DNA from: Candidatus Nealsonbacteria bacterium RIFOXYB1_FULL_40_15
GTDB taxonomy: Bacteria > Patescibacteriota > Minisyncoccia > Minisyncoccales > GWA2-38-27
Reading direction: 5' to 3'
Assembly (NCBI GenBank): GCA_001821555.1
Contig: MHMM01000010.1
Span: 19,629 to 83,628 of the forward strand
DNA: 64,000 nucleotides
The position numbers and the translations under genes were made by a program. Positions 28,041 through 44,834 of the stretch are shown piece after piece (positions within the stretch are counted from its first letter, which is position 1; each line of letters opens with the position of its first letter). Under the pieces are notes generated by a model. That model had not been told where the DNA came from and ran no database searches. It saw only the letters and a list, made by a program, of their open reading frames with translations.

Positions 28041-28813
28041 AACTCTTTTTTGGCAGATTCCAGATCCTCCCGTTTTAGCGCGGAACTGTGCCATTTTAAA
28101 TTATTTTCCATGAAAGAAACTCCCTTTCCTTTTATAGTATCAGCTATTATCATCAAGGGATGATCTGGCTTTTCAGAAAGAGCTTTTAACAGCTCCTTGA
28201 AAGAATGACCGTCCACTGTCTTGCACTCCCACCCTGAAGCCCTTATTTTTTCTTCAAGCTTATCCTCTATTTTTTCTGTGACCGAAAGTCTGTTCCTGTC
28301 TATTATTCCAACCAAGTTTTTGACCTGCTTTTTCCCTGCGAACATAATTGATTCCCAAATGGATCCTTCTTCGCATTCTCCGTCTCCGACTAAAGCAAAC
28401 GATCTGTAGTTGTTGCCGTCTATTTCCGCAGATAAAGCCATTCCGCAGGCAACCCCTATGGCATGCCCCAAGGATCCTGTATTGTATTCCACTCCCGGAG
28501 TATTTAGATTAAGCTGAACGCCCAAGCTTGATCCATTTTTCCCGTAGCTTTGGATTCTGGAAGGTTCAAAAAATCCAATGTCAGCAAGAATATGATATAA
28601 GGCCAAAGAAGCATGGCCTTTTCCCAAAACAAACCTGTCCCTGCCGTCCCATTTTGGATTTTTAGGATCTACTTTCAAAATATTCCCGTAGTAAAGAGCA
28701 ACTAAAATATCCGTGCAGGAGAATATCCCGCCTATATGCTCCCCCTTTTTTGTCCGGGCAGCAGTTTCTAAAACTTGACTTCTGACCCATCGGGCTTTTT
28801 CTTCCAATGTCAT
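28031..28813 (-). CDS. Transketolase N-terminal (TPP-binding) subunit
   Basis: GHIGGIFSCTDILVALYY, RDRFVLGKGHASLALY and LVGDGECEEGSIWES. Confidence 0.85.
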   Translation of the reverse strand: MTLEEKARWVRSQVLETAARTKKGEHIGGIFSCTDILVALYYGNILKVDPKNPKWDGRDRFVLGKGHASLALYHILADIGFFEPSRIQSYGKNGSSLGVQLNLNTPGVEYNTGSLGHAIGVACGMALSAEIDGNNYRSFALVGDGECEEGSIWESIMFAGKKQVKNLVGIIDRNRLSVTEKIEDKLEEKIRASGWECKTVDGHSFKELLKALSEKPDHPLMIIADTIKGKGVSFMENNLKWHSSALKREDLESAKKELWI

Positions 28814-30462
28814 ATTTGCTTTATAGGTTCTATTATCTTCTGGCAGTTGTCCGAAACAACCTCTATAAATACAGGACCTTTTTTATTTAATATTTCTGTT
28901 ATTTTGCCGTCAACCTCTTCATAATTTTGGATGGACTCGTAAGGAAGTTCAAAAGCATCTGCTATTTTTTTAAAATTAAGGCCTTCGGCCTGGCCGGACC
29001 CCACGTGCCTTCCTCCGCAAAGGGCATCCTGGGTGTTTCTTATAGAAACATACCCTCCGTTGTTTATGACAAACAACTTTATATCCAGCCCGCAGGAAGA
29101 CATTGTTTTGAGCTCTTGTATATTCAGTTCAAGAGAACCGTCTCCTGTAATCGCAAGTATTTGTCTAGAAGGATCGGCACTTGCCGATCCTATGGCTAAG
29201 GGAATGGCAAGCCCCATAGAAGCAAAAGCTCCCGATGTTATTTCCCTCTGCCCTTTTTCAAATCTCAAAGCCTGGCCTGTTACATAATAGGAAGAGCCAG
29301 CATCCGAAACAAAAACACTATTTTCTTTTGACAAGGCATCCAACCGGCTTACAAAATAGTAAAGATCTATCGGGTTTCTGGCAGGGCCAGCCAGAGGATA
29401 GCTTTCTTTATAACCTTGGCAATCCTTTAGCCAGTCCGAAGCATCAACTTTTACATCTTCTTTCAAAAGGCCTTCAATAAATTCCTTTACATCCGAATTT
29501 ATTTGGAGGTCAACTCTAATGCTGGGCTTTTTTAGTTCTGCTTCATCTATATCCACCATTATAATCTTGGCGGATTCAGAAAGAGCGTCGCTCACGAAAG
29601 GAACAGCCAGTCTGCTCCCCAGGCTCAAAATCAAATCGCTCTTGCTCATTATAAGTTTTGTATATCTTAATCCTTTCATCCCTCCATGCCCCAAATTATA
29701 CCTGTAAGAAAAAGGAAGCATATCCTGGCCAAGCCTTGATAGAATAACTGGGATTTTAAGCTTCTCTATCAAATTTTTGAATTCATCCAAGGATTTTGCA
29801 ATCCTTATCCCCTGGCCGGCTATTATCAAGGGCCTTTTTGATTCAGCCAAAAGCATTACTGCTTCTTTCAACTTATTTTTATCCAAATCTTTTTCGGAAG
29901 CTTCAGGATTCCAACCCTCAAGCATTTTTTCGTCTATAATGCTGGACTGCACATCCAAAGGAATATCCAGCCACACAGGCCCAGGCCTTCCGGATTTTGC
30001 AAGATAAACTGCTTTTTCTAAATGATATCGTATGCTATCAGGGTCCTCCACCATTTGAGCATATTTCGTCAAAGAATTAACGATCGGAATTATATCAATT
30101 TCCTGGATTCCTAAGCTTCTCAAGTTTTTGATATTAGCTTTGTGGCAGGTATGCTTCTTATCTACTTGGCCTGAAATAACAAGAACAGGAGCAGAATCCA
30201 CCCATGCTTCGCTTAACCCAGAAACAGCATTTGTCCCGCCTGGACCTGAAGTAATGCAAGCAACTCCTAATTTTCCTGTCAATCTGGCATAGGATTCGGC
30301 CATCATAGGAGCTGTAGCTTCGTTTCTTACGCAGATAAAATCCAAATTCTTTCCGGCTATGCTGTCGTCAAGATAAACAGACCCGCTTCCCGAAAGCATA
30401 AAAATCTTTTTGACTCCCTGCCTGGCTATAAAATCAGCTATATAATCTGAAACTTTCATCAT
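28810..30462 (-). CDS. Thiamine-diphosphate enzyme of the acetolactate-synthase/YerE family
   Basis: GPGGTNAVSGLSEAWVDSAPVLVISGQV (TPP_enzyme_N) and ITGDGSLELNIQELKT...VINNGGY (TPP-binding GDG...NN). Confidence 0.8.
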   Translation of the reverse strand: MMKVSDYIADFIARQGVKKIFMLSGSGSVYLDDSIAGKNLDFICVRNEATAPMMAESYARLTGKLGVACITSGPGGTNAVSGLSEAWVDSAPVLVISGQVDKKHTCHKANIKNLRSLGIQEIDIIPIVNSLTKYAQMVEDPDSIRYHLEKAVYLAKSGRPGPVWLDIPLDVQSSIIDEKMLEGWNPEASEKDLDKNKLKEAVMLLAESKRPLIIAGQGIRIAKSLDEFKNLIEKLKIPVILSRLGQDMLPFSYRYNLGHGGMKGLRYTKLIMSKSDLILSLGSRLAVPFVSDALSESAKIIMVDIDEAELKKPSIRVDLQINSDVKEFIEGLLKEDVKVDASDWLKDCQGYKESYPLAGPARNPIDLYYFVSRLDALSKENSVFVSDAGSSYYVTGQALRFEKGQREITSGAFASMGLAIPLAIGSASADPSRQILAITGDGSLELNIQELKTMSSCGLDIKLFVINNGGYVSIRNTQDALCGGRHVGSGQAEGLNFKKIADAFELPYESIQNYEEVDGKITEILNKKGPVFIEVVSDNCQKIIEPIKQI

Positions 30463-31628
30463 ATCTTTTTATGAAAATCTTCCATTTTGCTTAAAGCTTC
30501 TTCTATCTCCTTTTTTTCTGTACTTGCATAGCAGAACCTTGCATATCCTTCCCCGAAACTGCCGAAACAATTTCCCGAAACAGCTGCTATGCCTGAATTC
30601 TCCAACAGTTCTTCACAATATCTGGCCGAATCCATCCCCGTTCCCTTTATATTGCAAAAAGCGTAGAAAGCTCCTTCGGGCATTACGCACGAAAGGCCTT
30701 TTATCCTGTTCAGTCCTCCTATCAGAAGATTTCTTCTTTCATTTAATTCCTGAATTCTTTTTCCTAAAAAACTGTGATCTCCTTCAAGGGCCGCCTTGCC
30801 TCCCAACTGGGTAAAGGCAGGCAAGCAGGACATTATGGTTTCCAGAAGAAGGCCCATCTTTCTTATAAATGATTCTGGACCTATGGCGAACCCCAGCCTC
30901 CAGCCGGACATAGAATAAATCTTTGAAAGACTTCCCAAGACGATGGTTCTTTCTTTGCATTTGTCCCTCAAACTCGGAGAAAAATGATTTTTCCCTCCAT
31001 AAATTATTTTTGAATAAACTTCATCCGAGAGAAGATAGACATCCGAATGCTCTGCAATTTCGGCCGTTTTAAAAACTTCTTCTTCTGTCATAACAGAGCC
31101 CGTCGGATTCTGGGGCGTATTCATGATTATGAGGCGGGTCTTGTCTGTAATCTTTTCTACTATATCATCAGGATTCATCCTAAAGCTGTTTTCTTCTTTC
31201 AGCCGGACAGGGACAGGAACAAACCCATTGTATTTTATAACCGAGTAATAAGTGGGGAAGCCCGGGCCGGGAAGAATTATCTCCTCTCCCGGATCTGCTG
31301 CGCATCTTGCAGTAAAGTCAATCAAAGCATTGGCCGGGCAGATCAAAACCTGATTCAGGTCCGGCTTGAAGCCCAGGTCTCTTTCTGCATAATTTGCCAC
31401 TGCCTCTCTTAATTCTCTTAACCCCATTGAATTTGTATAATGGGTGAGCTTTTGATCCAGGGCTTTTTTTGCCGCCTCAAGAACATGATCCGGAGAATCA
31501 AAATTAGGATCCCCGAGTTCAAAATGAATAACCTTTTTCCCCTCCCTTTCCATATCTTGGGCTCTGGATAAAAGTCCAAACATGGGCTGGCCTAAAAGAT
31601 TTTCTGCTATTTTTGATAAATGTTTCAT
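30459..31628 (-). CDS. PLP-dependent aminotransferase, class I/II (AspAT fold)
   Basis: MNTPQNPTGSV and SLSKIYSMSGWRLGF (PLP lysine). ATG 31628 (MKHLSKIAENL) is preferred to 31688, which overlaps the upstream gene by 56 nt. Confidence 0.8.
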   Translation of the reverse strand: MKHLSKIAENLLGQPMFGLLSRAQDMEREGKKVIHFELGDPNFDSPDHVLEAAKKALDQKLTHYTNSMGLRELREAVANYAERDLGFKPDLNQVLICPANALIDFTARCAADPGEEIILPGPGFPTYYSVIKYNGFVPVPVRLKEENSFRMNPDDIVEKITDKTRLIIMNTPQNPTGSVMTEEEVFKTAEIAEHSDVYLLSDEVYSKIIYGGKNHFSPSLRDKCKERTIVLGSLSKIYSMSGWRLGFAIGPESFIRKMGLLLETIMSCLPAFTQLGGKAALEGDHSFLGKRIQELNERRNLLIGGLNRIKGLSCVMPEGAFYAFCNIKGTGMDSARYCEELLENSGIAAVSGNCFGSFGEGYARFCYASTEKKEIEEALSKMEDFHKKI

Positions 31629-31632
31629 ATGT

Positions 31633-32547
31633 TTATTTCCATCTTCCCTTAGGGCCTTGGGAGACAGTAAGAATATGCTTATTTTCAAACGCCTGCACTG
31701 GCTGGAGTCTTTTTTTCAACAAAGCTCCTCTGTCTTCCCTGTCGTCAATACAATGAATAAGCTCCGGAGGGATATCTTTTGCATCTTCTTTTTTAACTAC
31801 CCATAAGCTTTCCAGGAGGGGCCTGTCAACAGGAATTCCATATTCCATAAACAAACGTGGCCTCTTTTTTTCCTCGTTTCTCTCCAAAAAGAGGATTATC
31901 TTGATTAAAAAAACTTTAAGGCGGGGAAACATGGCAAGTACTTTGCTTGCAAAACTTGGCTTATTTTTCCAATAAGATTTAGAAGGATGGAATTCTTCAG
32001 CTTTGACATCTTTTGAAAGAACGACCCTGCCTCCTATTTCATAAACCCTCATAACAATGTCAGCATCCCAGAATAAAGCCACAAATCGCTTGTCTATTCC
32101 GCCGATTCTTTCCCAGACTTCTTTTTTCATAAATCCGCTTAGAGCCATTAGAGGAGAGTTATGGTTATCAACCCAATAATAGCCACACTCCCCTGCAATA
32201 TCCTTTCCTTCCAGAACATATCGGCAAGAAAGAACCGCTTTGTCGTCATTCAGTTCCCTGAATTCTCTGTAAAGATTATCCAAAGCGTGCGGAGAAAAGA
32301 CAACATCATCCGCAAAATTCATTATGTATTCGCCCTGGGCATAGCGGGCCCCTATTTCAAGGCATTGGACGGGCTTTGTTTCAGAATATATGAAATGGCA
32401 GTTTTCAGGAAGCTTAAACTGGGGTATTTTATTTCCCACAAAGATCATCTCAAAAGGAATCTTATTTCCAGCCAAAGATTCATATGTCTTCATCCAAAGC
32501 TCGGGTCTCACCGCAGAGCTAAATAAACTTATAATTGGTTTTTCCAT
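31633..32547 (-). CDS. Family X copy 2: uncharacterised GT2/GT-A-like transferase
   Basis: MEKPIISLFSSAVRPELWM, FADDVVF, FWDADIVMRVYEIGGRV and tail LTVSQGPKGRWK. ATG 32547 chosen by alignment to X1. Confidence 0.5.
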   Translation of the reverse strand: MEKPIISLFSSAVRPELWMKTYESLAGNKIPFEMIFVGNKIPQFKLPENCHFIYSETKPVQCLEIGARYAQGEYIMNFADDVVFSPHALDNLYREFRELNDDKAVLSCRYVLEGKDIAGECGYYWVDNHNSPLMALSGFMKKEVWERIGGIDKRFVALFWDADIVMRVYEIGGRVVLSKDVKAEEFHPSKSYWKNKPSFASKVLAMFPRLKVFLIKIILFLERNEEKKRPRLFMEYGIPVDRPLLESLWVVKKEDAKDIPPELIHCIDDREDRGALLKKRLQPVQAFENKHILTVSQGPKGRWK

Positions 32548-34280: not shown

Positions 34281-35207
34281 TTATATGATATTTTTAATTT
34301 GTTTTATTATGCTTTCTGCGTCCAGGCCTTCTTCTTTACACATATATCTTTTGTCGCCGTAGCAGAAACATTCTTTGTCTTTGATTCCAAACCTTTTAAA
34401 TTTTGCAGTGATCCCATAATCGCACAATAAGTCGCAAATAGAAGTTCCGACTCCTCCGTAAGACAAGTGATCCTCTATAGCTACTACTATTCTGGCTTTC
34501 TTGAGAATTTCTGATAACAAGGCTTCGTTAAGCGGCTTAATCCTGTACAGATCAATCAGTCCTGCGTTGATTTTATCCGCTACTTCCAAAGCAGTATGCG
34601 TCATGGATCCTGAAGAGATAATTATTGTGTCTTCTCCCTCTCTTAACAGGGAAAATCCTGCGTCAAAATTTTCTTTTTCGTACAAAAAAGGAGAAACTCC
34701 TTTGTCAAAACGCAAGTAAGAAGGTCCTGAAATCCTGCAGCATAAATCTACAAATGAAGACGCCTGAACAGGATCTGAAGCAGATAAAATAGTCATGCCG
34801 GGAATTCCTTTCATTATGGAAATATCCTGGATTGAATGATGAGTAGGGCCGTCTGATTCGTAAGAATACCCTCCTCCTATTCCGATTATTGAAACAGGAA
34901 GATTCATTATTCCTATGTCAATTTTTATCTGCTCGTAGCATCTTGCCGTAATAAAGCATGCTATGGCATGAACAAACACTTTTTTCCCGCCCAAAGCAAG
35001 ACCGGAGGCTACGCTTATCAAATTTTGCTCTGCAGGCCCCGCGTTTATTATCTGATCGGGTATGTTTTCCTTAAACTTCTCAAAGCTTTTGGCGCCCTGA
35101 TCCCCCAAAAGCAGGATTATATTCTTGTCTTTCAGGGCAACAGAATAAAGACTGTCAAAAACAGCATCTCTCATGTCCTGCTCTTTAATTGCAGTTTTAT
35201 TTTCCAT
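34281..35207 (-). CDS. Transketolase C-terminal (pyrimidine-binding) subunit
   Basis: NAGPAEQNLISVASGLALGGKKVFVH and GPTHHSIQDISIMKGIPG. Confidence 0.85.
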   Translation of the reverse strand: MENKTAIKEQDMRDAVFDSLYSVALKDKNIILLLGDQGAKSFEKFKENIPDQIINAGPAEQNLISVASGLALGGKKVFVHAIACFITARCYEQIKIDIGIMNLPVSIIGIGGGYSYESDGPTHHSIQDISIMKGIPGMTILSASDPVQASSFVDLCCRISGPSYLRFDKGVSPFLYEKENFDAGFSLLREGEDTIIISSGSMTHTALEVADKINAGLIDLYRIKPLNEALLSEILKKARIVVAIEDHLSYGGVGTSICDLLCDYGITAKFKRFGIKDKECFCYGDKRYMCKEEGLDAESIIKQIKNII

Positions 35208-36009
35208 ATTCTAATTCAATCCTGGCTTTTTCCAAAAGCTCTCCTTTTGGAACGCCATGATGCCAATGAAAATCATTTTCCATAAAAGAAACTCCCTTGC
35301 CTTTTATCGTATTTGCAACAATGGCCAGGGGCCTTCCGCTATTTCTAGAATGAATATCCGATAAAACCGAAAATATTTCGTTAAAGTTATGCCCTGATAT
35401 TTCTCTTGTATCCCATCCAAAGCCTTCCCATTTTTCTTTCAAGGGAGATATTCCTGAATATTCTTGGGTTGGACAAGTGGCCCCCACTTTGTTGTTGTCT
35501 ATTATGGCTACAAGGTTATCAAGATTTCTGGCTGAAGCGAAGTTTGCCGCCTCCCAAACAGATCCTTCGCAACATTCTCCGTCTCCCAGCAGAACAAGGA
35601 CGGAAAAAGGCTTTTTATCAAGCTTTGCTGAAAGAGCAAGGCCCGATCCTATGCCTAAACCGTGTCCCAAAGATCCTGACGAAACCTCTACTCCCGGAAT
35701 GCGGTGGTCCGGATGCCCTCCCAGTATAGAGCCGTTTCTGCCATAATTTTTAAGCTTTTCCGGGCTGAAGAATCCCAGATCGGAAAGCACCGAATATAGG
35801 GTAAGGCAGGCATGCCCTTTGCTTAAAATAAACCTGTCCCTTCCTTCCATATCGGGATTTTCAGGAGAAAAATTCATTATTTTTCCGTAATACAATGCTG
35901 TTATAATCTCAACGCAGGAAAAAGCTCCCCCCAAATGGGCCTTTCCGGCTAAAACCGCCGTTTCCAAAATTTGCCTGCGGATCCAATTTGATTTTTCCTT
36001 TAAGTCCAT
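35197..36009 (-). CDS. Transketolase N-terminal (TPP-binding) subunit
   Basis: AHLGGAFSCVEIITALYY, RDRFILSKGHACLTLY and LLGDGECCEGSVWEA. Confidence 0.85.
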   Translation of the reverse strand: MDLKEKSNWIRRQILETAVLAGKAHLGGAFSCVEIITALYYGKIMNFSPENPDMEGRDRFILSKGHACLTLYSVLSDLGFFSPEKLKNYGRNGSILGGHPDHRIPGVEVSSGSLGHGLGIGSGLALSAKLDKKPFSVLVLLGDGECCEGSVWEAANFASARNLDNLVAIIDNNKVGATCPTQEYSGISPLKEKWEGFGWDTREISGHNFNEIFSVLSDIHSRNSGRPLAIVANTIKGKGVSFMENDFHWHHGVPKGELLEKARIELEYGK

Positions 36010-36869
36010 TTTCCTTTGGGCCCCTGCGAGACCGTTAAAAAATGCTCTTCTTTAAATGGTTCTACAGTATGCAATCTTTTTTTTGAAAGTTTCCCCCTCC
36101 CTTCCTTTTCGCAGTAAAATTCACTCAAGGATTCTCCCACCCAGAAGCTGTCTAAAAGTGGCCTATCCAAGCTCACTCCGTATTGCGAAAAAAGGCGGGC
36201 AGGTGGAACTTTCGGCTTTGAAATTTTATGATAGCCCCAGGCCACAACCTTATATATCAAGGGATTTTTCAGTATAGGAAACTTTCTTTTTAAAACCTCC
36301 CTGCCCGTTAACTCCTCTACATAAGCATCCTTGGCAAAGACCAACCTGCCCCCTATTTCATACATCCTCATAGCTATATCAAGATCCCAATACAGAGCAA
36401 TAAATCTTTTGTCTATTCCGCCTATTTTTTCCCAAACTCTTTTTTTCATTAAACTTCCTGCTGGCATTCTAGGAGAGCTTTTTTCATCAGTCCAATAATA
36501 GCCATGCTTGTCGGTAAGATCCTCCCCCTCAAAAACAAACCTGCAGGAAACCATAGCTTTCTCGTCATTCATCTTTATAAATTCTTCGTATAGCTTGTCC
36601 AGGGCATGGGGAGAAAAAACGCAATCGTCTCCAAAGTGCATTATCAAATCTCCCGTTGAATAACGGGCTCCTATCTCAAAACATTGGGCTGGCTTTGTTT
36701 TAGAGTATATAAAATGGCAGTTTTCGGGCATTTCAAATTCCGGAGGATTATTCCCCACAAAAATCATTTCAAAGGGAATTTCATTTGAAGACAAAGAATT
36801 ATAAATCCTCATCCACAATTCAGGACGAATGGTTGAACCGAACAAGCTTATAATAGGACTTCTAGCCAT
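36000..36869 (-). CDS. Family X copy 3: uncharacterised GT2/GT-A-like transferase
   Basis: MARSPIISLFGSTIRPELWM, FGDDCVF, YWDLDIAMRMYEIGGRL and tail LTVSQGPKGKWT. ATG 36869 preferred to 36908. Confidence 0.5.
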   Translation of the reverse strand: MARSPIISLFGSTIRPELWMRIYNSLSSNEIPFEMIFVGNNPPEFEMPENCHFIYSKTKPAQCFEIGARYSTGDLIMHFGDDCVFSPHALDKLYEEFIKMNDEKAMVSCRFVFEGEDLTDKHGYYWTDEKSSPRMPAGSLMKKRVWEKIGGIDKRFIALYWDLDIAMRMYEIGGRLVFAKDAYVEELTGREVLKRKFPILKNPLIYKVVAWGYHKISKPKVPPARLFSQYGVSLDRPLLDSFWVGESLSEFYCEKEGRGKLSKKRLHTVEPFKEEHFLTVSQGPKGKWT

Positions 36870-37788
36870 TTTTGGTTGGTTCCCAGGCACAGAAGCAATA
36901 GCCGTCATGAAAAAGATTGCCCAAGCCCGTCTTTTTTATTTTTATTATATTTATTTTTCCTTTTGACTCCAGGTCTTTTAAAGCGGAAATAAAATTTCCC
37001 AGATATCCTCTCTTTTTATGAAATTCCAATCCTAAATAATCCACCAGAGAATTTTGATCATACAGCTCTTTAAGAGGCTCCATATGGACGCATACTTTGA
37101 AATTTTTTCTGCAAAGATATTCAAGAAAAGGCATGAAATTTTCGCCTAATTGTTCAAACCCTCCCATTGTCAAACAAGCTCCGCCTTCTTTTATTTCAAG
37201 CCCTTCGTCCGGAGAAAACATATCAAACACATGGCCTTTCATATTCCAATTATAATTTTCCGCCATTTTATCCACTATTATTTTAGAAGATTCCGACCAG
37301 TCCAATCCGTGAAGCTCTTTGTCTGGAAAAAGCTCTGCTAAAATAGGAAGGTTGTATCCCGATCCTGATCCAAATTCATAAATAGCTGAAGCGTCTTTGA
37401 AGTAATTCTCAAAAAGCCAGGTTCTGAAAACAAGATACCAATTGACTTCAAAGTCAGAATCTAGGGGCATAACATAGTCCCCCGAAAATCTTATTGATTG
37501 ATCTTGTTTTATATATTTTGGAACGAGCATTTTTAAATCGCATCCTTTGCCAACAAAATCTTTCAAATTTTCCGACCATCCCTTTTCCCAAGAGTCTTTT
37601 CTTTCTTTCCCTGAAAAAGAAAGATTTTTAGAGTTTAGTCTTTCTATCACCTTTAAAATCACTGCGTCCCGCTCTTTCTCGTCCAGCTTTCTATACCTGA
37701 AATCAAACTTTTCTATAAGTTTCCGGCAGTTTTCCGAAACCTCCCCCAAAATAGAGGAAAAATCCAAATTGTAAACAGTATTGTTCAT
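36862..37788 (-). CDS. Family Y copy 3 (more divergent): methyltransferase-like protein
   Basis: RKDSWEKGWSENL, PKYIKQDQSIR and EFGSGSGYN. Confidence 0.55.
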   Translation of the reverse strand: MNNTVYNLDFSSILGEVSENCRKLIEKFDFRYRKLDEKERDAVILKVIERLNSKNLSFSGKERKDSWEKGWSENLKDFVGKGCDLKMLVPKYIKQDQSIRFSGDYVMPLDSDFEVNWYLVFRTWLFENYFKDASAIYEFGSGSGYNLPILAELFPDKELHGLDWSESSKIIVDKMAENYNWNMKGHVFDMFSPDEGLEIKEGGACLTMGGFEQLGENFMPFLEYLCRKNFKVCVHMEPLKELYDQNSLVDYLGLEFHKKRGYLGNFISALKDLESKGKINIIKIKKTGLGNLFHDGYCFCAWEPTKNG

Positions 37789-38534
37789 TCCACTACAAAA
37801 TAAGAGGTTCTGGACGCATATCTGAATCTCTTAAGCTTTATATTATTCAATCCGAAAACTTCTTTTACCGCAGCTGTTTCTCCGGGCGAGTCATGGTCAT
37901 TCAGTTCATCAAACCCCAGCACGCTTCCTTTTATCAAATGCGGTTTTATCGCTTCAAGGCATTTTTTAGTCGGCTCATATATATCAAAATCAAAATAAGC
38001 GAGACTTATTATTGTTTCAGGATACTTTTTCAGATACTCGTCTATTGTCTGGACAGCGTCTCCTGGAACTACTTCAAACTTTTTAATATGAGAAAGGGGA
38101 TTGTCTTTTTCCTGAAATTCCATTACTTTCTCCAAATAAGCTGTGTAATTTTCGGGCAGTCCCAAGTTTCCCTGGAACATAAGATTTGAATTGCTGTCTT
38201 TTTCTGATATGGAGGGAAAACCCGTGAAAGTGTCAAATCCGACAATCTTTCTGTGGCGGTTGAATGGCTCATATATTCCCCTTAAGCTGGCAAACAAAGC
38301 CATATTCTGCCCCCACCAAGTTCCGAATTCAACAACAATACCCTGGGTGTCAATTATCTTTTTGTATATATGATCCATAAAAAGAATCCTTGCAAGATTT
38401 TTTGAATTTAAAAAAAGTCCTAAGTTAGAAAGTATTTGATCATCCGGAATCGGACAGCTTCTAAAATGCTCTGCGAACTGGCCTCTTGCTTTTGATTCTT
38501 CTTCGCTGTTGTAAAATTTTGGTATATTTTGCAT
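37785..38534 (-). CDS. TylF/MycF (macrocin O-methyltransferase)-family SAM methyltransferase
   Basis: VEFGTWWGQNMALFASLRG, VGFDTFTGFP and LAYFDFDIYEPTKKCL...GSVLGFDE. Confidence 0.6.
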   Translation of the reverse strand: MQNIPKFYNSEEESKARGQFAEHFRSCPIPDDQILSNLGLFLNSKNLARILFMDHIYKKIIDTQGIVVEFGTWWGQNMALFASLRGIYEPFNRHRKIVGFDTFTGFPSISEKDSNSNLMFQGNLGLPENYTAYLEKVMEFQEKDNPLSHIKKFEVVPGDAVQTIDEYLKKYPETIISLAYFDFDIYEPTKKCLEAIKPHLIKGSVLGFDELNDHDSPGETAAVKEVFGLNNIKLKRFRYASRTSYFVVE

Positions 38535-38543
38535 ATTAATTTA

Positions 38544-39641
38544 TTAAAGTTTTTTTCTAATATATGCCGGAATCGGCTTTTGTCCATTATGCGCGATAAC
38601 CCAAGCCCAATAGCGTATCCTTCCCTCCACTAAAGAATACCCTCCCTTTCCGTCCGATATTAGTCTTACCGGCTTTATATCTTCTTCAGGATGTTCCGAA
38701 AAATACAGGGCTAGGTCAGAAGGGCTTGGAATAAAACCCAGTTTATTTTCCAGGGCCTCGCTTTTTGTCCTGTAAACCATCCTGTTGCTCTGGCCATCGG
38801 GGCTTACCTCTATCTTATCTACCGGCGCATAGGTTGGTTTTCTGCTATAAAGAGAGCTTATCGTTTCAAAATCTTCTTTTGAAATTTTAAATCCAGAAGC
38901 TCCGGCATTTTCTTCAATATGCTTTTCAGAAACTGTGGGAATGGCGATTACCGTAGGATGCATAGTTAGCCAGTTCAGGGCTATCTGGGCAGAAGTCCTA
39001 TCGTATTTTTCAGCTATTGCATTAAAAACCTTTGTTTTTTCTTCGTCATCGTCCGGTATAATTCTCCCCTGGTCCAAAGGGCTGCACGCTATTGTTATTA
39101 TCTTTTTTTCTTCGCAATAAGGAAGAATCTTGTCTTCAATAAAATGATCAAATAAATTGTATTCTGTCTGGAAAGAAGAAATTTCTCCGAGGATTTCTGC
39201 TTCTTTCAGCTGTCCAAGATAAAAGTTGCCCACCCCTATATATCTTATTTTCCCTTGCTCTTTTAGCATTTTAAGCCCCTCCATGGTTTCTTCCATATTT
39301 ACTTTAGGATTGTGCCAATGGAACTGATATATATCTATATAATCTGTTTGGAGTCTTTTCAGACTTCCTTCGGCAGCTTTTATAACATCTTTATATGAAC
39401 TATGATCTGAAGCAAATTTACTGCAGATAATAACCTTCTCCCTCAATCCCTTGATTGCTTTTCCGACAATTATCTCTGAATTCCCCTTATCGTAGCTTTC
39501 TGCCGTATCAATTAAATTCATGCCAAGGACTATCCCTTTTTTAAGCGTAGCAACATGGCTTTCATTCCAGGGATAATCTCCCATGCCCATTCCTACAGCC
39601 GGAAAATTTAGATTAAAATGGTCCCTTAAATTTGTTTTCAT
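38544..39641 (-). CDS. Aldo/keto reductase fused to a C-terminal ParB/sulfiredoxin-like domain
   Basis: AKR region: DTAESYDKGNSEIIVGKAI and YIDIYQFHW. C-terminal ~95 aa: PVDKIEVSPDGQSNR...IKPVRLISDGKGGYSLVEGRIRYWAWVIAHNGQKPIPAYI, which follows the ParB N-terminal domain pattern (xDGxxR..A..). Confidence 0.65.
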   Translation of the reverse strand: MKTNLRDHFNLNFPAVGMGMGDYPWNESHVATLKKGIVLGMNLIDTAESYDKGNSEIIVGKAIKGLREKVIICSKFASDHSSYKDVIKAAEGSLKRLQTDYIDIYQFHWHNPKVNMEETMEGLKMLKEQGKIRYIGVGNFYLGQLKEAEILGEISSFQTEYNLFDHFIEDKILPYCEEKKIITIACSPLDQGRIIPDDDEEKTKVFNAIAEKYDRTSAQIALNWLTMHPTVIAIPTVSEKHIEENAGASGFKISKEDFETISSLYSRKPTYAPVDKIEVSPDGQSNRMVYRTKSEALENKLGFIPSPSDLALYFSEHPEEDIKPVRLISDGKGGYSLVEGRIRYWAWVIAHNGQKPIPAYIRKKL

Positions 39642-40653
39642 AGCTGTAAAATTCTTCTTCAGAAAGATCAGCCGGGGAAAGGCCCAGCATTTCTTCGGCC
39701 GTTCTTATTATTTTTTCTGCGTTGGGATAAAACTCGTTTTCAAGATGTCTCGCCGTAGGACAATGAATGTGGGAAAATCCTATTCTTTTTACGGGAAACT
39801 TAAGCTTCCCAAAGCATTTTTCTGAAACCCTAGCAGCTACTTCAGAACCAAATCCGCAGTCAATCCAGTCATTGTCGGCTACAATGCATCTTCCGGTTTT
39901 TTCAACCGATCTAATAATCATTTCGTCGTTAAAAGGAGCTATGGTTCTAGGATCTATAATTTCCGCTTCTATGCCTCTTTTTTTAAGAACTTCTGCCGCT
40001 TTTAATGCTTCTACATTCATCCAAGAAACAGCGACTATGGTAAGATCTTTCCCCTCTCTCAATATATTAGGAAGGCCTATTGGTATTTCAAATAAATTTT
40101 CGGGCACCTCTTCTTCCTGATAGTAAAGCCATCTGTGTTCCATTACTATAACCGGATTATCGTCCCTTATGGCCGAAACAAGGAGGCCTTTGGCGTCTTT
40201 GGCCGTGGTAGGAAGAACAACTTTTAGCCCTGGAATATGAGCAAAAACAGAATACATGCTTTTTGAATGCTGGAATCCCTGCCCCCATCCTCTTCCTATA
40301 ACAGCCCTTATAGTGAGAGGGACTTTCATTTTCCCTGCAGATCCGTATCTCCAGCTTGAAATAATATTAGCCAACTGATTCATCGCCAGAAGCATAAAAT
40401 CAACCCTTTCATGAATGTGCACCGGCCTCAATCCGTTTAAAGAAGCGCCCAGTCCAAAGCCAGTCATTGCATCTTCTGAAATCGGGGTGTCAAAACATCT
40501 TTCCTCTCCGAACTTCTCCACCAGATTCTCGGTCGTTCCAAATATTCTTTTCACGTCAGGAACCCCGATTCCATAAACAAAAACACTCGGGTCTCTTTCC
40601 ATCTCCTGAATCAAAGCTTCGTTTATCGCTTGTTTATAGCTTATCTTTCTCAT
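39613..40653 (-). CDS. 2-oxoacid dehydrogenase E1 component beta subunit-like (AviB2-like)
   Basis: ISYKQAINEALIQEMERDPSVFVYG and FDTPISEDAMTGFGLGASLNG. ATG 40653 preferred. Confidence 0.85.
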   Translation of the reverse strand: MRKISYKQAINEALIQEMERDPSVFVYGIGVPDVKRIFGTTENLVEKFGEERCFDTPISEDAMTGFGLGASLNGLRPVHIHERVDFMLLAMNQLANIISSWRYGSAGKMKVPLTIRAVIGRGWGQGFQHSKSMYSVFAHIPGLKVVLPTTAKDAKGLLVSAIRDDNPVIVMEHRWLYYQEEEVPENLFEIPIGLPNILREGKDLTIVAVSWMNVEALKAAEVLKKRGIEAEIIDPRTIAPFNDEMIIRSVEKTGRCIVADNDWIDCGFGSEVAARVSEKCFGKLKFPVKRIGFSHIHCPTARHLENEFYPNAEKIIRTAEEMLGLSPADLSEEEFYSYENKFKGPF

Positions 40654-41581
40654 AAAAAATATCTTTATGCGCTTCTTCTTTTCCGGCAAAAGGAGCTGAT
40701 TCCGCCAGAGATATGCTTTTTTCTATCTGTTCATCCTGCTCTTTTTCTATTCTAACCGCGTCTTCTTCTGAAACTCTTTTTCTTAATAATTCCACGGGGT
40801 CTTTCTTCCTCCATTCTTCAAACTCTTCTTTTGGGCGATATTCGTCAAAATATTGGTTGACTCCAACATGTTCTAAATATCTGTAGTAGTTAAAATGCAA
40901 AAAACAGGGCATTCTGTTCTCTTTCATTATATCCAAAGCTTTCTTTGTTGTATTATAAACAACTTCTGCATCCACGCCCTCTTCTTCAAAAACATTGCAT
41001 CTGAATTTGGATGCTATTTCTGAAATTGATTCGTACCCATGCCTCTTGGATATGGGCGTATTTTTGGCGAAACCGTTGTCTTCGCAGATAAATAAAATAG
41101 GAAGCTCCATAAGGCAGGCGATATTTATGCTTTCCCAAAAACACCCTTCTTCAATAGCCCCGTCTCCGAAGAATATAGCTGTTATTTTATTGTTTTTAAT
41201 CCTTTTATTGGCAAAAGCGGCTCCCACAGCCACTGATATCCCTCCCGAAACAATAGCCAATGTGCTCATAAGGCCGTTTTCAGGAGAATTAAGATGCATT
41301 GATCCTGCCTTTCCTTTTGATCCTCCGGTCGCCTTGCCGAACATTTCAGCAAAGAATTCGTCTGTTTCTCCTGTTTTGGAAAGATACAAGGCATGGCTTC
41401 TGCAGCTTCCCAAAACCTGATCTTCTTTATTTAATGCTTGGCACACTCCAGCCGAAATCGCCTCTCCGCCCATAGACATATGCATAGGAGTCTTCATTTT
41501 GTCTTCAGGATAAAGCTGGCAGATTCTTTCTTCGGCTTTTCTGATCAAATAAACCTTTTTGTATAAATCCAGAATTGTCAT
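40634..41581 (-). CDS. TPP-dependent 2-oxoacid dehydrogenase E1 component alpha subunit-like (AviB1-like)
   Basis: FFGDGAIEEGCFWESINIACLMELPILFICEDNGFA. The track start 41602 is TTG. ATG 41581 forms an ATGA overlap with the upstream stop. Confidence 0.85.
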   Translation of the reverse strand: MTILDLYKKVYLIRKAEERICQLYPEDKMKTPMHMSMGGEAISAGVCQALNKEDQVLGSCRSHALYLSKTGETDEFFAEMFGKATGGSKGKAGSMHLNSPENGLMSTLAIVSGGISVAVGAAFANKRIKNNKITAIFFGDGAIEEGCFWESINIACLMELPILFICEDNGFAKNTPISKRHGYESISEIASKFRCNVFEEEGVDAEVVYNTTKKALDIMKENRMPCFLHFNYYRYLEHVGVNQYFDEYRPKEEFEEWRKKDPVELLRKRVSEEDAVRIEKEQDEQIEKSISLAESAPFAGKEEAHKDIFYEKDKL

Positions 41582-43587
41582 TTGCTTAAATAATTCCTCC
41601 AATAATTAAGAATATCTTTTAAAGTGTCATCAAACTTAATTTCTGCTTCCCAGCCAGTTTCTTTCTTGAACTTGTCCGTGCAAGGAATCTGCAAAGTAAC
41701 ATCAGACGGCCTTAATCTTTCAGGGTCCTGCTCCACTCTTATATCCTTGACTGTAGAAAGAGCCAGGAGTTTCTGCAACATCTCTTTTACAGTCATGGTT
41801 TCAACGCCTCCCACATTATATACTTCTCCGGGGGTGCATTTTTCGGGTAAAATCCAGTATGCCCTTACAGCATCTTTCACGTCTAGAAAAGTCCTTATGC
41901 TTTCAAGATTTCCCACTTTAACAACCGGATCTTTTAGCCCTGCTTCTATTTCAGCTATCTGCTTTGCAAAGGTTGATTCAACGAAGACTTCGCCCCTCCT
42001 TGGACCAGTATTGTGGACAATATTGCCTCCAATCCCCGCGTGAAACCAATGATTTTCGGTTTCAAGATCCCAGACTTCGCCAGAATATTGCAATTCTGTT
42101 ATTTTTACAATATCGTTATCTCCTTTCAATAAATGTCTTCCTCTATTGGTTTTCAGTTGAGAAAGACATCTGATTTCAAAATATCTTTTTTCATCTCTAT
42201 GCTCTACAATAATTCTGTATTTACAGTTCAATGCGGTTTCTATAATAAAACAAATTCCTAATGCTAAAATAGGTGATTTTGTTTTAAATCTGTAAAACTT
42301 GCTTTTTACTTTATTTCTCAAGTCTCCGTCTCCGTCATTATAGCCAGAAAGAAAAGCTAATTTAGATTTTTTATCGGCATTAAGAATAATTTGAGGAATT
42401 TTTTTATTTTTATCGACAGCATAACAATCTTGATAAAAACGTTTAGCAATATAAAAAGGTTTTCTTAAATATAATCTGTAAACGCCGCCTTCCCCTGGGA
42501 TTATCTTACTATCAATTGCTAAATTTTTAATCAAAATATTTTGAGCTTTTTTTAATTTACTTTCGTCTTTATTGTCAATGTGCATCCGGCCGCCGCTCAC
42601 ACAGCCTTCCGCGACAAAAAAACCATACAACCAAGCAACTTCTTCGTTCACGGAAGTAATTTCTATTTTAGGAAAAAATGTCAATTTAATTTTATTTCCG
42701 ATTTTTAACTCTCCTGCCTTTACTTCCATGCCAGATTCGTCTATCAAAGAATGATTGTCTGTGGCATCTATCACTCCTCCGCGGCAAGCCACTTCTAGCA
42801 TTTTAACACCATTAATCGGATGGCAAGATATATGCTTAATCTTTATCCAATTTCCGTCATTCCATACCTCCATGCTATTTCTATTCAAGTCCCAAACTTG
42901 TGTACCATCCTTTAACAATGTTCCAGAAAGATAGCCACCCCTTTTTAACGGAGACCTGATCTCTGAAATATATTTTATATCTATCAACCCGCTTATAGAG
43001 TCTCTTAAAATAATAGGCGTCCATTTGCTTACGCTATGCGTAAAAAGTCTTGTTCTTATAGTTCTTATCTTCCAGGACAGCCAGTATTGCAATCCGAGCA
43101 TATCTTCTGCCACCTTGCTCACAGCATAAGGGGAGGCCGGACGAAAAGGATTCTCCTCTTTGATCGGAGTCTCCCCTTCTTTTACCTGCCCGTAGACTTC
43201 CGAAGAAGAACAGATATGCACCACAGGATCGTACCCCGAACCTAACTTTAACTTTTTGACTGCCTCCAAAAGATTAGCTGTCCCTATGACATTGGACTGC
43301 AGAGTGGCTATGGGGGCCTGAAAACTAAAGTCAACATAAGATTGGGCCGCCAGATGAAAAATAACATCCGGCCTGTGCTTTTCCAGCATTGACTGCAAAG
43401 AAGAAAGATCAACCAAGTCTCCCTGACAAAGAGTGATTTTCCCTAAACAGTGTTTTATATTCTCTTTCGGAGACCTCCACCGAACCAGCCCTACAATCTG
43501 AACTTCGGGATGATTTTCCAATATGAAATCCGCCAAATGGCTTCCTACAAAACCGGTTATTCCTGTTATTAAAACTTTTTTTATCAT
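41578..43587 (-). CDS. GDP-mannose 4,6-dehydratase/Rmd-family extended SDR, interrupted by an intein
   Basis: Exteins: MIKKVLITGITGFVGSHL...FHLAAQSYV...SPYAVSKVAED...RTRLFTH | TGPRRGEVFVESTFAKQIAEIEAG. ATG 43587 forms an ATGA overlap with the wzt stop; ATG 43605 is an alternative. The 72 extra N-terminal codons of the ORF track (to 43803) lie inside wzt and are rejected. Confidence 0.85.
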   Translation of the reverse strand: MIKKVLITGITGFVGSHLADFILENHPEVQIVGLVRWRSPKENIKHCLGKITLCQGDLVDLSSLQSMLEKHRPDVIFHLAAQSYVDFSFQAPIATLQSNVIGTANLLEAVKKLKLGSGYDPVVHICSSSEVYGQVKEGETPIKEENPFRPASPYAVSKVAEDMLGLQYWLSWKIRTIRTRLFTHSVSKWTPIILRDSISGLIDIKYISEIRSPLKRGGYLSGTLLKDGTQVWDLNRNSMEVWNDGNWIKIKHISCHPINGVKMLEVACRGGVIDATDNHSLIDESGMEVKAGELKIGNKIKLTFFPKIEITSVNEEVAWLYGFFVAEGCVSGGRMHIDNKDESKLKKAQNILIKNLAIDSKIIPGEGGVYRLYLRKPFYIAKRFYQDCYAVDKNKKIPQIILNADKKSKLAFLSGYNDGDGDLRNKVKSKFYRFKTKSPILALGICFIIETALNCKYRIIVEHRDEKRYFEIRCLSQLKTNRGRHLLKGDNDIVKITELQYSGEVWDLETENHWFHAGIGGNIVHNTGPRRGEVFVESTFAKQIAEIEAGLKDPVVKVGNLESIRTFLDVKDAVRAYWILPEKCTPGEVYNVGGVETMTVKEMLQKLLALSTVKDIRVEQDPERLRPSDVTLQIPCTDKFKKETGWEAEIKFDDTLKDILNYWRNYLSK
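42010..43035 (-). mobile_element. Intein (342 aa) with LAGLIDADG homing-endonuclease domain
   Basis: Inserted exactly in the conserved FxH|TGPRRGE motif. Ser1 (SVSKWTPIIL, block A), TDNH (block B), LAGLIDADG motifs LYGFFVAEGCV and AFLSGYNDGDGDL, C-terminal GNIVHN followed by Thr+1. I checked the junction codons by hand (CAC AAT | ACT at 42015..42007). Confidence 0.8.
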
Positions 43588-44834
43588 AATTTTTCGGTCT
43601 GCCATTCCAAAAGGGGGCGGATGGCTCCCAAATGCTGGCCGGGCATATAAATTATTCTTTCTTCTGAATTTTCTTCGTAGATCCTGAAAAAAACCGCAGG
43701 CTCTGCTATAGCATCCGCAGGCATTGAAATATCGGAACTCAAATAAGCATTTACCGTATAAGTACCCTCGTTCAAAAGATTGGCGGGTATTCTGCAGGAG
43801 CATTTATAAAGGCCGGGTGCATATTCTTTTTTTCCCCACTTTTTATCGTGCAGATTAGTAGCATAAAACACTAAGCTTCCAAACTGGTTATAAATATGGA
43901 AAACGGGGTTCATCTTTGATTTTTTAAGGCACCAAAATTCAAATTGGACGATAACAGGATCTTCTTTCTTTATATTTTGAGACACCTCTCCTTTTTCATT
44001 GACAGCTTTCACAGATTTGAACTTAAGAGTATCCGATCCCGGAGCATCCTCCAAACTCCATGAAATTTGGCTTGAAGACCCTCCGTCAAGTGAAAGATAT
44101 TCATTTACCACTTCATCAGTCCTGCCCTGTTTTTTAATCTTCCCCTGGCTCAATAATATGGCTTTATTGCATAAAGAAGACACTGCAGACATATTGTGGC
44201 TTACAAACAGCACCGTTCTCCCTCCTTTTGCCACGCCCTCCATTCTTTTAAGGCATTTTTTCTGAAAAGCAGTATCGCCGACTGCCAAAACCTCGTCTAT
44301 TATAAGAATTTCGGGCTCTAAATGGGCAGCCACCGAAAAGGCCAGCCGGACATACATCCCGCTTGAATATCTCTTTACGGGAGTGTCTAGAAACTGCCCG
44401 ATTTCAGCAAATTCCACTATCTCATCAAATTTGGATTCTATTTCTTTTTTAGTCATGCCCAGTATGGCTCCATTCAGATAAACATTCTCCCTGCCGGTAA
44501 GTTCAGGATGAAATCCTGTTCCGACTTCAAGAAGACTTCTGACCCGCCCCCGGATCACAGCCCTCCCTTCTGTGGGCGGAGTAATTCTAGAAAGTATTTT
44601 TAAAAGCGTGCTTTTTCCGGCTCCATTAAGCCCTATTATCCCAAGGACTTCTCCTTCTTCAACCGAAAAATTCACCCCGTCCAAAGCCCAAAAGTTTCCC
44701 TTGCTCCGGTTTTTGATCCAATCTTTTGGATTTCTTATAAAATTAGAAATGTCTTCCCTCAAAGAAAAATACGCTTCCTTTCTTAACCCTATGCGATAAC
44801 TCTTTGAAAGATTTTCAACCTCAATGACTTTCAT
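43584..44834 (-). CDS. wzt: Polysaccharide ABC exporter ATP-binding protein with C-terminal carbohydrate-binding (Wzt_C-like) domain
   Basis: GIIGLNGAGKSTLL (Walker A), YSSGMYVRLAF (signature), ILIIDEVLAVGD (Walker B), plus a ~160-aa beta-rich C-terminal extension. Confidence 0.85.
   Translation of the reverse strand: MKVIEVENLSKSYRIGLRKEAYFSLREDISNFIRNPKDWIKNRSKGNFWALDGVNFSVEEGEVLGIIGLNGAGKSTLLKILSRITPPTEGRAVIRGRVRSLLEVGTGFHPELTGRENVYLNGAILGMTKKEIESKFDEIVEFAEIGQFLDTPVKRYSSGMYVRLAFSVAAHLEPEILIIDEVLAVGDTAFQKKCLKRMEGVAKGGRTVLFVSHNMSAVSSLCNKAILLSQGKIKKQGRTDEVVNEYLSLDGGSSSQISWSLEDAPGSDTLKFKSVKAVNEKGEVSQNIKKEDPVIVQFEFWCLKKSKMNPVFHIYNQFGSLVFYATNLHDKKWGKKEYAPGLYKCSCRIPANLLNEGTYTVNAYLSSDISMPADAIAEPAVFFRIYEENSEERIIYMPGQHLGAIRPLLEWQTEKL

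Follow-up and report, generated by a model that had tools for sequence, protein, structure and literature searches.

A pyruvate dehydrogenase E1-like alpha/beta pair in a surface-glycan gene cluster of a Candidatus Nealsonbacteria bacterium: a predicted sugar-branching carboligase acting without E2 and E3

Why should a surface-glycan gene cluster of a bacterium from the Candidate Phyla Radiation (CPR) encode both subunits of an enzyme resembling the E1 component of pyruvate dehydrogenase (PDH)? The question is raised by a stretch of 64,000 nucleotides from contig MHMM01000010.1 (positions 19,629 to 83,628), part of a metagenome-assembled genome (MAG) of Candidatus Nealsonbacteria bacterium RIFOXYB1_FULL_40_15, a member of the CPR; this whole stretch is termed the window in the following. 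Most of it is filled by a glycan cluster of about 46 kb (417-46146, minus strand, GC content about 0.39) that comprises Wzm/Wzt ABC-export genes, many glycosyltransferase genes and a large set of genes for nucleotide-sugar enzymes. The E1 pair lies within this cluster at 39613-41581, exactly where a first-pass annotation of the same DNA had placed it. That annotation had proposed an E1 pair of the AviB1/AviB2 type that works without E2 and E3 and attaches a two-carbon branch to a keto-sugar, and the proposal gains support from family scores, from the clade of the beta subunit, from a C-terminal tail of that subunit and from gene order. We consider it highly probable that the pair is an E2-independent carboligase of a sugar pathway. 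Somewhat less firmly, we favor the view that it is an alpha2beta2 thiamine diphosphate (ThDP)-dependent enzyme of the alphaKADH2 sugar-branching type that would transfer the C2 unit of pyruvate to C4 of GDP-6-deoxy-4-keto-heptose, with subsequent reduction by an aldo-keto reductase (AKR).

Both genes are intact and constitute a complete pair within the glycan operon, as had been deduced earlier, and the motifs GDGAIEEG...EDNGFA are indeed present. The deduced proteins are identical to NCBI entries OGZ27164.1 (E1 alpha) and OGZ27163.1 (E1 beta). E1 alpha matches PF00676 (E1_dh) with 158 bits (E = 2.7e-46), while E1 beta contains the domains Transket_pyr (PF02779, 108 bits) and Transketolase_C (PF02780, 122 bits). 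The ThDP motif GDG-x27-EDN is intact in E1 alpha, the His of 'YRYLEH' aligns with His263 of human E1 alpha, and E1 beta has kept the catalytic His ('FQHS', corresponding to beta His128) as well as the ThDP-activating Glu ('ISE'). As all of these catalytic and cofactor residues are conserved, the protein should decarboxylate a 2-oxo acid. Its fold, the order of its domains, its ThDP motif and its catalytic His and Glu residues are those of E1 components from PDH, acetoin and branched-chain dehydrogenase complexes, and the first half-reaction, in which pyruvate is decarboxylated to the enamine, is presumably the same. Mean column identity of the E1 family amounts to 76% across 12 diverse members, which points to purifying selection. 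A non-functional remnant, or a structural role in the glycan machinery that does not depend on ThDP, might be considered given that CPR genomes are reduced and that the neighboring dehydratase gene contains an intein. In view of two intact open reading frames (ORFs), conserved cofactor and catalytic motifs, the high column identity and an intein equipped with all splicing motifs, such an explanation is hardly credible.

Another alternative is that of an ordinary PDH or acetoin dehydrogenase E1 with E2 and E3 encoded elsewhere in the genome, whose position in the glycan cluster would either be incidental or serve acetyl-CoA supply for sugar acetylation. It is favored by the conserved catalytic His, by best PDB matches to E1s of PDH and branched-chain 2-oxo acid dehydrogenase (closest solved structures: human PDH E1 alpha with 110 bits for the alpha and Geobacillus stearothermophilus PDH E1 beta with 241 bits for the beta subunit), by database names of relatives such as 'pyruvate dehydrogenase E1' or 'acetoin:DCPIP oxidoreductase' and by the fact that PDH E1 alpha and E1 beta are the best NCBIfam models. 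Both subunits, however, score below the curated cut-offs of these models. E1 alpha reaches 251.6 with TIGR03182 (cut-off 393.85) and E1 beta 306.9 with NF006667 (cut-off 321); the scores with the further models TIGR03181 and NF008854 are 141.5 (cut-off 411.35) and 284.6 (cut-off 454). Loss of the lipoyl-directed His residues (equivalents of alpha His263 and beta His128) was considered as a discriminator between complex-bound and independent E1s and was dropped, as both residues are conserved.

The first-pass annotation had reported neither a lipoyl-bearing E2 nor an E3 in the window, and three approaches agree with it. Lipoyl, 2-oxoacid_dh and pyridine-nucleotide-disulphide oxidoreductase domains were not detected by Pfam in the 54 likely genes among the 62 window ORFs of at least 150 residues; none of the six-frame ORFs of the window was hit by phmmer when three E2 sequences and one E3 sequence served as references; and a scan of the window for the motifs DHRxxDG and GxCxNxGCxP[ST]K was negative.

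To place the pair among its relatives, one genome per GTDB species was scanned with two peptide patterns, resulting in 80 loci (L-numbers are locus labels). The best non-identical E1 alpha homologues, 69% identical and located on metagenome contigs, are embedded in the same gene order as in the window, Wzm-Wzt-dehydratase-E1 alpha-E1 beta-AKR-methyltransferases. A homologue with 59% identity on a 538-kb contig is found in the order dehydratase-E1 alpha-E1 beta-split transketolase-B12 radical SAM enzyme-...-AKR. Homologues of E1 alpha with at least 40% identity occur in the CPR (Peribacteria, Jorgensenbacteria, Microgenomates, Levybacteria, Sungiibacteriota and Saccharibacteria) and furthermore in Dehalococcoidia, Terriglobia, Phycisphaerales, Magnetococcales, Omnitrophota, Elusimicrobia, Nitrospira, Gemmatimonadota, Verrucomicrobia, Oligoflexia and other Proteobacteria, and in all of these loci the E1 beta gene directly follows that for E1 alpha. 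The arrangement dehydratase-E1 alpha-E1 beta, in part followed by genes for an AKR, a split transketolase or a B12 radical SAM enzyme, extends to relatives in over 15 phyla, among them CPR, Chloroflexota, Acidobacteriota, Planctomycetota, Elusimicrobia, Omnitrophota, Nitrospira, Gemmatimonadota, Verrucomicrobia and Proteobacteria.

Wherever the flanks of members of the core clade defined below are informative, the pair resides among genes for nucleotide-sugar metabolism. Neighbors in the related loci encode dehydratases, RmlC-like epimerases, reductases, AKRs, B12 radical SAM enzymes and split transketolases. In 15 related loci, the gene immediately preceding the E1 pair encodes a homologue of the window dehydratase (52-76% identity), and HddA-like kinases (42-67% identity) occur within 10 kb of the pair in 16. 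Homologues of the AKR are found beside the pair in L001-L005, L013 and L019, and both methyltransferase-like genes recur there in L001-L004, L013 and L014. One carrier is in culture, Azospirillum lipoferum 4B, which has the pair on plasmid AZO_p6 between genes for an NAD-oxidoreductase and a DegT aminotransferase. Two loci contain two different E1 alpha/beta pairs within a single sugar cluster, L015 from Sungiibacteriota (5110-7000 and 9962-12200) and L019 from Gemmatimonadota (1911-3800 and 9983-12000). A possible E1 pair in the O-antigen region of Coxiella burnetii was considered and discarded, as papers on the lipopolysaccharide (LPS) of this organism do not mention one and Coxiella is absent among the 80 loci.

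Phylogenetic trees were calculated by neighbor joining from Kimura distances with 100 bootstrap replicates, leaving out the columns of the beta tail. The window pair belongs to a core clade of 26 leaves in the alpha tree (100% bootstrap support) and 27 leaves in the beta tree (99%). A link to characterized pathways emerged from a search with the E1 beta of a Streptomyces plasmid pair, which retrieved a protein named Pau12 in UniRef (Streptomyces albidoflavus) and a homologue from Kibdelosporangium banguiense. The S. albidoflavus locus is the paulomycin cluster, with genes for an acyltransferase, the AKR Pau7, Pau11, Pau12, a SARP regulator and a P450 as well as a glycosyltransferase, a hexose 2,3-dehydratase, a chorismate-utilizing enzyme and an isochorismatase, while the homologue from K. 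banguiense is part of a kibdelomycin-like cluster of nonribosomal peptide synthetase (NRPS), polyketide synthase (PKS) and glycosyltransferase genes. Over its full length, the window E1 beta is 43% identical to Pau12, and E1 alpha shares 35% identity with Pau11.

In the beta tree, the core clade, the pairs from Azospirillum and Pelagibacter, Pau12 and the proteins from Kibdelosporangium and Streptomyces griseofuscus form a clade of 35 leaves (80% bootstrap), and all E2-linked pairs fall outside. A placement against AviB1/B2 and dehydrogenase E1s had been suggested as a check of the first-pass proposal; it came out as proposed for the beta subunit, which groups with Pau12, and less clearly for the alpha subunit, for which the grouping of the core clade with Pau11 shows the same topology at just 33% bootstrap support. 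In these trees, the alphaKADH2 class, to which AviB1/B2, Pau11/12, AlmDI/DII and KbDH are assigned, is represented by Pau11/12 and the K. banguiense homologue. Streptomyces sp. BHT-5-2, Embleya and S. fungicidicus were discarded as references, as they turned out to have ordinary E2-linked pairs without the tail. The pair on S. griseofuscus plasmid pSGRIFU1 (L086, 11986-14032), whose beta subunit is 73% identical to Pau12, is surrounded by genes for a condensation-domain protein, an acyl carrier protein, a phosphopantetheinyl transferase, a thioesterase and ketosynthases, and sugar genes were not found within 12 kb. Owing to this PKS/NRPS context, some tail-bearing E1 pairs may serve non-sugar acceptors.

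No E2 or E3 was detected by phmmer with E2 and E3 references within 10 kb on either side of any member of the 35-leaf clade, whereas the same procedure recovered all positive controls (L033, L039, L084 and L087-L092). What looked like an E2 motif near the Azospirillum pair proved to be a spurious antisense ORF.

A feature of E1 beta itself goes along with this separation. The protein ends in an extension of about 23 residues (...FYSYENKFKGPF), of which the last are KFKGPF. A tail of the type F-x-G-P-[F/Y] is found at the end of all full-length beta subunits in the 35-leaf clade, including Pau12 (...GFQGPF) and the Kibdelosporangium homologue (...DFVGPY), and it is absent from all sampled E1 beta proteins outside this clade, among them those of all E2-linked pairs and of G. 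stearothermophilus. Since tail columns were left out of the tree, the tail, which was identified in this analysis and not drawn from published work, represents an independent character. In E1s that belong to complexes, the C-terminal region of the beta subunit binds the peripheral subunit-binding domain of E2 on the two-fold axis (PMC2663715; PMC11754459), and we infer from the position of the tail that it may replace or block E2 docking. In addition, the active-site loop reads GRGWGQGxQHS in beta proteins of the clade and GSGTGAAAQHS in E2-linked enzymes. When 1.84 billion cluster representatives were searched, the loop was present in 70 of the best 150 matches, 53 of which also had the tail. 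Natural alpha-beta fusions of about 650-710 residues that combine the GRGWGQ loop with an F-x-G-P-F end were encountered as well (P0158, P0163, P0165, P0167, P0183 and P0206), and many of the representatives end in a second subtype of the tail, '...HDVPxxxFxGPF'; both indicate that the tail-bearing superfamily is much larger than the sampled sugar clade. Ten tail-bearing representatives of high GC content have generic database names only.

These data bear directly on the interpretation as an ordinary E1. The window pair differs from E1s of complexes by the missing E2 and E3 nearby, sub-threshold model scores, the GRGWGQGxQHS loop, the beta tail and a context of sugar biosynthesis throughout. 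Across phyla, the pair has retained its translational coupling with genes for a sugar dehydratase and an AKR, the 35-leaf clade is devoid of E2 and E3 within 10 kb and excludes every E2-linked pair tested, it contains Pau12 from a sugar pathway, and the tail sits at the very end of E1 beta where E2 would dock. Furthermore, the pair is encoded in many genomes of the CPR, a group that largely lacks the tricarboxylic acid cycle, as does the phylum of the organism studied here (PMC13293708), whose Nealsonbacteria have been found in association with Methanothrix (PMC13293708). Usable statements on PDH in Nealsonbacteria or Parcubacteria were not found in the literature. In favor of the ordinary E1 it can be said that the E2/E3 search covered the window and the flanks of relatives and not the whole genome. 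Considering that the linkage with sugar genes persists from phylum to phylum, that clade and tail are exclusive and that the host belongs to the CPR, this explanation nevertheless appears very unlikely.

If the pair is a sugar-branching carboligase, the adjoining genes should reveal its substrate, and they are tightly packed. Stop codon of the dehydratase gene and start codon of the E1 alpha gene overlap as ATGA, the ATG of the E1 beta gene is located 20 nt within the E1 alpha gene and that of the AKR gene 29 nt within the E1 beta gene; two methyltransferase-like genes follow after a gap of 9 nt and with an overlap of 4 nt, respectively. The genes are thus packed for co-translation, and the E1 pair is translationally coupled to the upstream dehydratase gene. 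Coordinates of these and further features are compiled in Table 1.

Table 1. Features of the window discussed in the text (coordinates refer to the window)
Feature	Position	Strand	Remarks
E1 alpha-like subunit, ThDP/PP domain, 315 aa	40634-41581	minus	ORF 40634-41602; true ATG at 41581
E1 beta-like subunit, Pyr and C-terminal domains, 346 aa	39613-40653	minus	ORF 39613-40689; ATG at 40653
C-terminal extension of E1 beta, about 23 aa	39613-39684	minus	...LSPADLSEEEFYSYENKFKGPF followed by stop; F-x-G-P-F end
Short-chain dehydrogenase/reductase, GDP-heptose 4,6-dehydratase-like, intein-interrupted	41578-43590	minus	Extein 327 aa
LAGLIDADG-type intein, 342 aa	42010-43035	minus	PF14528 LAGLIDADG_3 and Intein_splicing
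Aldo-keto reductase (AKR), 365 aa	38544-39641	minus	PF00248, 195.6 bits
Methyltransferase-like gene 1	37785-38534	minus	Borderline Methyltransf_24, 26.0 (cut-off 26.3)
Methyltransferase-like gene 2	36862-37788	minus	GSGSG motif; no Pfam match
Heptose supply genes: GmhA, HddA-like kinase, NTP-transferase-GmhB phosphatase fusion	18179-21004	minus	
Split transketolase 1	35197-36009 with 34281-35207	minus	Pfam
Split transketolase 2	28031-28813 with 26244-28094	minus	Pfam; C-half fused to methyltransferase domain
ALS/YerE-like ThDP enzyme (ALS, acetolactate synthase)	28810-30462	minus	TPP_enzyme_N/M/C domains, single chain
B12-binding radical SAM enzyme	24364-26262	minus	
Two tandem proteins of about 740 aa, Wzy_C (O-antigen ligase/polymerase) and TPR repeats	49815-54274	plus	Opposite to cluster
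Fusion of thioredoxin and ferredoxin-thioredoxin-reductase catalytic-chain domains, 191-aa ORF	62508-63083	minus	

For the dehydratase extein, the best match in the PDB is the GDP-D-glycero-D-manno-heptose 4,6-dehydratase from Campylobacter jejuni (7US5; 328.5 bits, 52% identity), and the alignment continues unbroken over the site of intein excision. The next best match reaches 209 bits and GDP-mannose dehydratases are found at about 130 bits. From this similarity, the enzyme is predicted to supply the 4-keto-6-deoxy acceptor sugar. The intein is inserted at the conserved RLFTH|TGPRRG motif of the dehydratase and exhibits Ser1, TDNH, a pair of LAGLIDADG motifs and, at its C-terminus, HN with Thr+1 as the next residue; as all splicing motifs are there, normal maturation of the dehydratase is expected. 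An insertion of this size is absent from all homologues with 52-76% identity in related loci, which have lengths of about 339 residues. Upstream supply of a heptose is likewise encoded in the cluster. GmhA scores 210.1 with TIGR00441, above the cut-off of 209.45, HddA is the best model for the kinase, and judged by these assignments the three genes at 18179-21004 would be those needed for GDP-D-glycero-D-manno-heptose.

The AKR is predicted by analogy to Pau7 to reduce a C-acetyl branch. It has a C-terminal extension of about 100 residues (38547-38846, minus strand) that does not match any Pfam family; homologues in L001 (368 residues) and L004 (358 and 378 residues) are of similar length, while Pau7 has 258 residues. 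Both methyltransferase-like proteins probably tailor the branched sugar. The product of the first of these genes is called 'crotonobetainyl-CoA--carnitine CoA-transferase' by NCBI and UniRef; it travels with the E1/AKR module and is probably a misannotated sugar methyltransferase.

Taken together, the following sequence of reactions can be envisaged. GmhA, the HddA-like kinase and the fusion of GmhB with a nucleotidyltransferase would provide GDP-D-glycero-D-manno-heptose, which the spliced dehydratase would convert to GDP-6-deoxy-4-keto-heptose. The E1 pair would decarboxylate pyruvate to hydroxyethylidene-ThDP and add the C2 unit to the carbonyl at C4 instead of passing it on to lipoamide, giving rise to GDP-4-C-acetyl-6-deoxyheptose with a tertiary alcohol at C4. 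Reduction of the acetyl branch by the AKR would yield a 4-C-(1-hydroxyethyl) group, and after tailoring by the adjacent methyltransferases the sugar would be built into a glycan exported by Wzm/Wzt. Pyruvate as donor, an acceptor derived from GDP-heptose, position C4, the function of the AKR and the order of steps are all inferred from this arrangement, and for the specific heptose, C4 and acetyl chemistry we see the chances as about even.

The closest precedent is paulomycin biosynthesis, where Pau11 and the AviB2 homologue Pau12, like AviB1/B2, have been proposed to generate a C-4 acetyl branch from pyruvate (PMC4753412) and where in vitro experiments have demonstrated that the AKR Pau7 converts the C-4' acetyl branch to hydroxyethyl by reduction (PMC4753412). 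The order dehydratase-E1 alpha-E1 beta-AKR in the window fits this logic of paulomycose formation. Pau11/12 from S. albidoflavus and S. paulus resemble the window pair with respect to subunit length (alpha 314-315, beta 345-346 residues), the F-x-G-P-F end of the beta subunit, the common clade in the beta tree and a gene cluster with a sugar dehydratase and an AKR that is free of E2 and E3. They differ by their modest sequence identity and by belonging to an actinomycete antibiotic cluster with TDP-deoxyhexose chemistry, a hexose 2,3-dehydratase and an EryCIII-type glycosyltransferase, whereas the window pair comes from a CPR bacterium, is part of a surface-glycan cluster of the Wzm/Wzt type and is directly coupled to a 4,6-dehydratase of the GDP-heptose type. 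The two AKRs, too, are distant from each other, that of the window having the additional C-terminal region.

KbDH-alpha/beta from kibdelomycin biosynthesis and AlmDI/DII from aldgamycin biosynthesis belong to the same enzyme class. KbDH accepts in vitro only pyruvate as donor and ketones as acceptors, the class being limited to C2 branches at C3 or C4 (PMC12247030), and evidence for the aldgamycin enzymes AlmDI/DII stems from knockout and feeding experiments (PMC12247030). In both cases, the C2 unit of pyruvate is added to a sugar ketone under formation of a tertiary alcohol, as predicted for the window pair. A difference is that KbDH and AlmD branch C3 of TDP-sugars in secondary metabolites; the comparison is made via the K. 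banguiense homologue, which is a member of the same tail-bearing clade. YerE, which acts in the formation of the LPS sugars yersiniose, erwiniose and caryophyllose, resembles the proposed system in that a C-acyl branch is placed on C4 of a nucleotide 4-keto-sugar and then reduced (PMC9306805). It is, however, a single-chain, FAD-containing decarboxylase of the ALS-like type that acts on CDP-3,6-dideoxy-4-keto-glucose, and its architecture is unrelated to that of the E1 pair, which has E1_dh and transketolase-like domains and lacks the single-chain TPP_enzyme_N/M/C architecture present in another gene of the cluster.

As an enzyme of the same class and pathway, the pair could still perform other chemistry: it could use another 2-oxo acid, accept a GDP-4-keto-6-deoxy-hexose, attack at C3 after keto-isomerization or build a longer, composite branch by acting on the product of another ThDP enzyme. 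AlphaKADH2 enzymes branch sugars at C3 or C4 depending on the pathway (PMC12247030), the heptose assignment is based on 52% identity to one characterized dehydratase, and the closest relatives L001-L003 do not have HddA in their 10-kb flanks. A composite branch would be in line with the split transketolases and the YerE-like enzyme in the same cluster, and such ThDP enzymes recur together with the E1 pair in L004, L006, L012, L013, L014 and L027, which makes sequential or alternative branching conceivable. On the other side, characterized alphaKADH2 enzymes take only pyruvate and give C2 branches (PMC12247030). A hexose acceptor fits poorly with the much higher score of the dehydratase to the heptose enzyme than to GDP-mannose dehydratases, and attack at C3 after keto-isomerization would call for a 3,4-ketoisomerase, which does not adjoin the E1 pair. 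Overall, we regard such deviating chemistry as rather improbable, albeit considerably more plausible than an ordinary E1.

Several points speak against transfer of a pyruvate-derived C2 unit to the 4-keto-heptose by the window pair. The function assigned to this pair and to the 26-leaf core clade is read from sequence and gene context. Both His residues of reductive acetylation are retained, so that the active site alone does not exclude lipoyl transfer, and E1 beta is about equally similar to G. stearothermophilus PDH E1 beta (241 bits) and to Pau12 (43% identity). The absence of E2 and E3 refers to the 64-kb window and to 10-kb flanks of relatives. Eight of the 26 core-clade loci do not have a close dehydratase homologue beside the E1 pair, and in a few of these (e.g., L010 and L016) about 2 kb upstream of the pair were covered. 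The window AKR shares just 27% identity with Pau7 (E = 9e-25). The trees are neighbor-joining trees on simple distances with low support for the alpha grouping, and the outgroup sample is biased, as it was retrieved by two peptide patterns. Finally, three further ThDP enzymes and several reductases in the cluster render the assignment of substrates to individual enzymes uncertain.

These further ThDP enzymes had been recognized in the first-pass annotation as two split transketolases and an ALS-like enzyme, and Pfam confirmed all three. Its count of four separate ThDP enzymes, including the E1 pair, is correct as well. The additional statement that this is extraordinary for one cluster goes too far, considering that E1 pair, split transketolase and ALS-like enzyme co-occur in several related loci. 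The ALS/YerE-like enzyme scores below every acetolactate synthase cut-off. According to a review from 2025, E1-type (alphaKADH2) and split-transketolase enzymes occur in actinomycete secondary metabolism and only the YerE type in LPS biosynthesis (PMC12247030). While the kind of enzyme encoded by the E1 pair is itself known and was named correctly in the first-pass annotation, its setting appears to be new, as a single surface-glycan cluster from the CPR here unites all three types of ThDP-dependent branching enzymes. Gene distribution suggests that the E1 type is common and horizontally spread in surface-glycan clusters of more than 15 phyla, especially in the CPR. There, it seems to be paired with a dehydratase of the GDP-heptose type and not with TDP-hexose chemistry, and the acceptor is likely to be heptose-derived.

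For the pair as a predicted sugar-branching carboligase, several consequences follow. Database names such as those cited above for relatives may wrongly credit minimal genomes with pyruvate oxidation. The F-x-G-P-[F/Y] tail in combination with the GRGWGQ loop offers a simple sequence rule for distinction from real PDH E1s, useful in the annotation of MAGs. The locus points to undescribed branched sugars derived from heptose and to new carboligases forming tertiary alcohols that are of biocatalytic interest. As a tentative extension, doubtful in its entirety, all three classes of ThDP enzymes might take GDP-6-deoxy-4-keto-heptose, or the products of one another, as substrates, so that chemically undescribed C-branched sugars with nine or more carbon atoms (e.g., 4-C-acetyl- or 4-C-hydroxyethyl-6-deoxyheptose) would be exposed on the CPR cell surface; the module, which would be widespread in surface glycans of uncultured phyla, might possibly contribute to recognition between episymbiont and host, and the tail might have freed E1 from the E2 core.

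Some observations concern the remaining genes of the window. Split transketolases have been proposed for hydroxyacetyl branching of keto-sugars and have so far been described as 'all from Streptomycetes' (PMC12247030); here, they are present in a glycan cluster of a CPR bacterium, and they are found beside the E1 pair also in the six loci listed above for recurring ThDP enzymes (L004, L006, L012, L013, L014 and L027). A gene for a class I/II aminotransferase directly follows the ALS/YerE-like gene (together 28810-31688, minus strand), and the same two genes are present in L001-L003; they may represent a second branching route in which an acyl branch is formed and then transaminated. Genes for B12-binding radical SAM enzymes adjoin E1 pairs also in L005, L010, L011, L016, L017, L019, L021, L024 and L029, and this recurrence suggests a further step of C-methylation or rearrangement that is tied to the branched sugar. 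Outside the cluster, the tandem Wzy_C/TPR proteins have a counterpart in related locus L004, which is flanked by a 738-residue protein of this type beside a PG_binding_1 protein.

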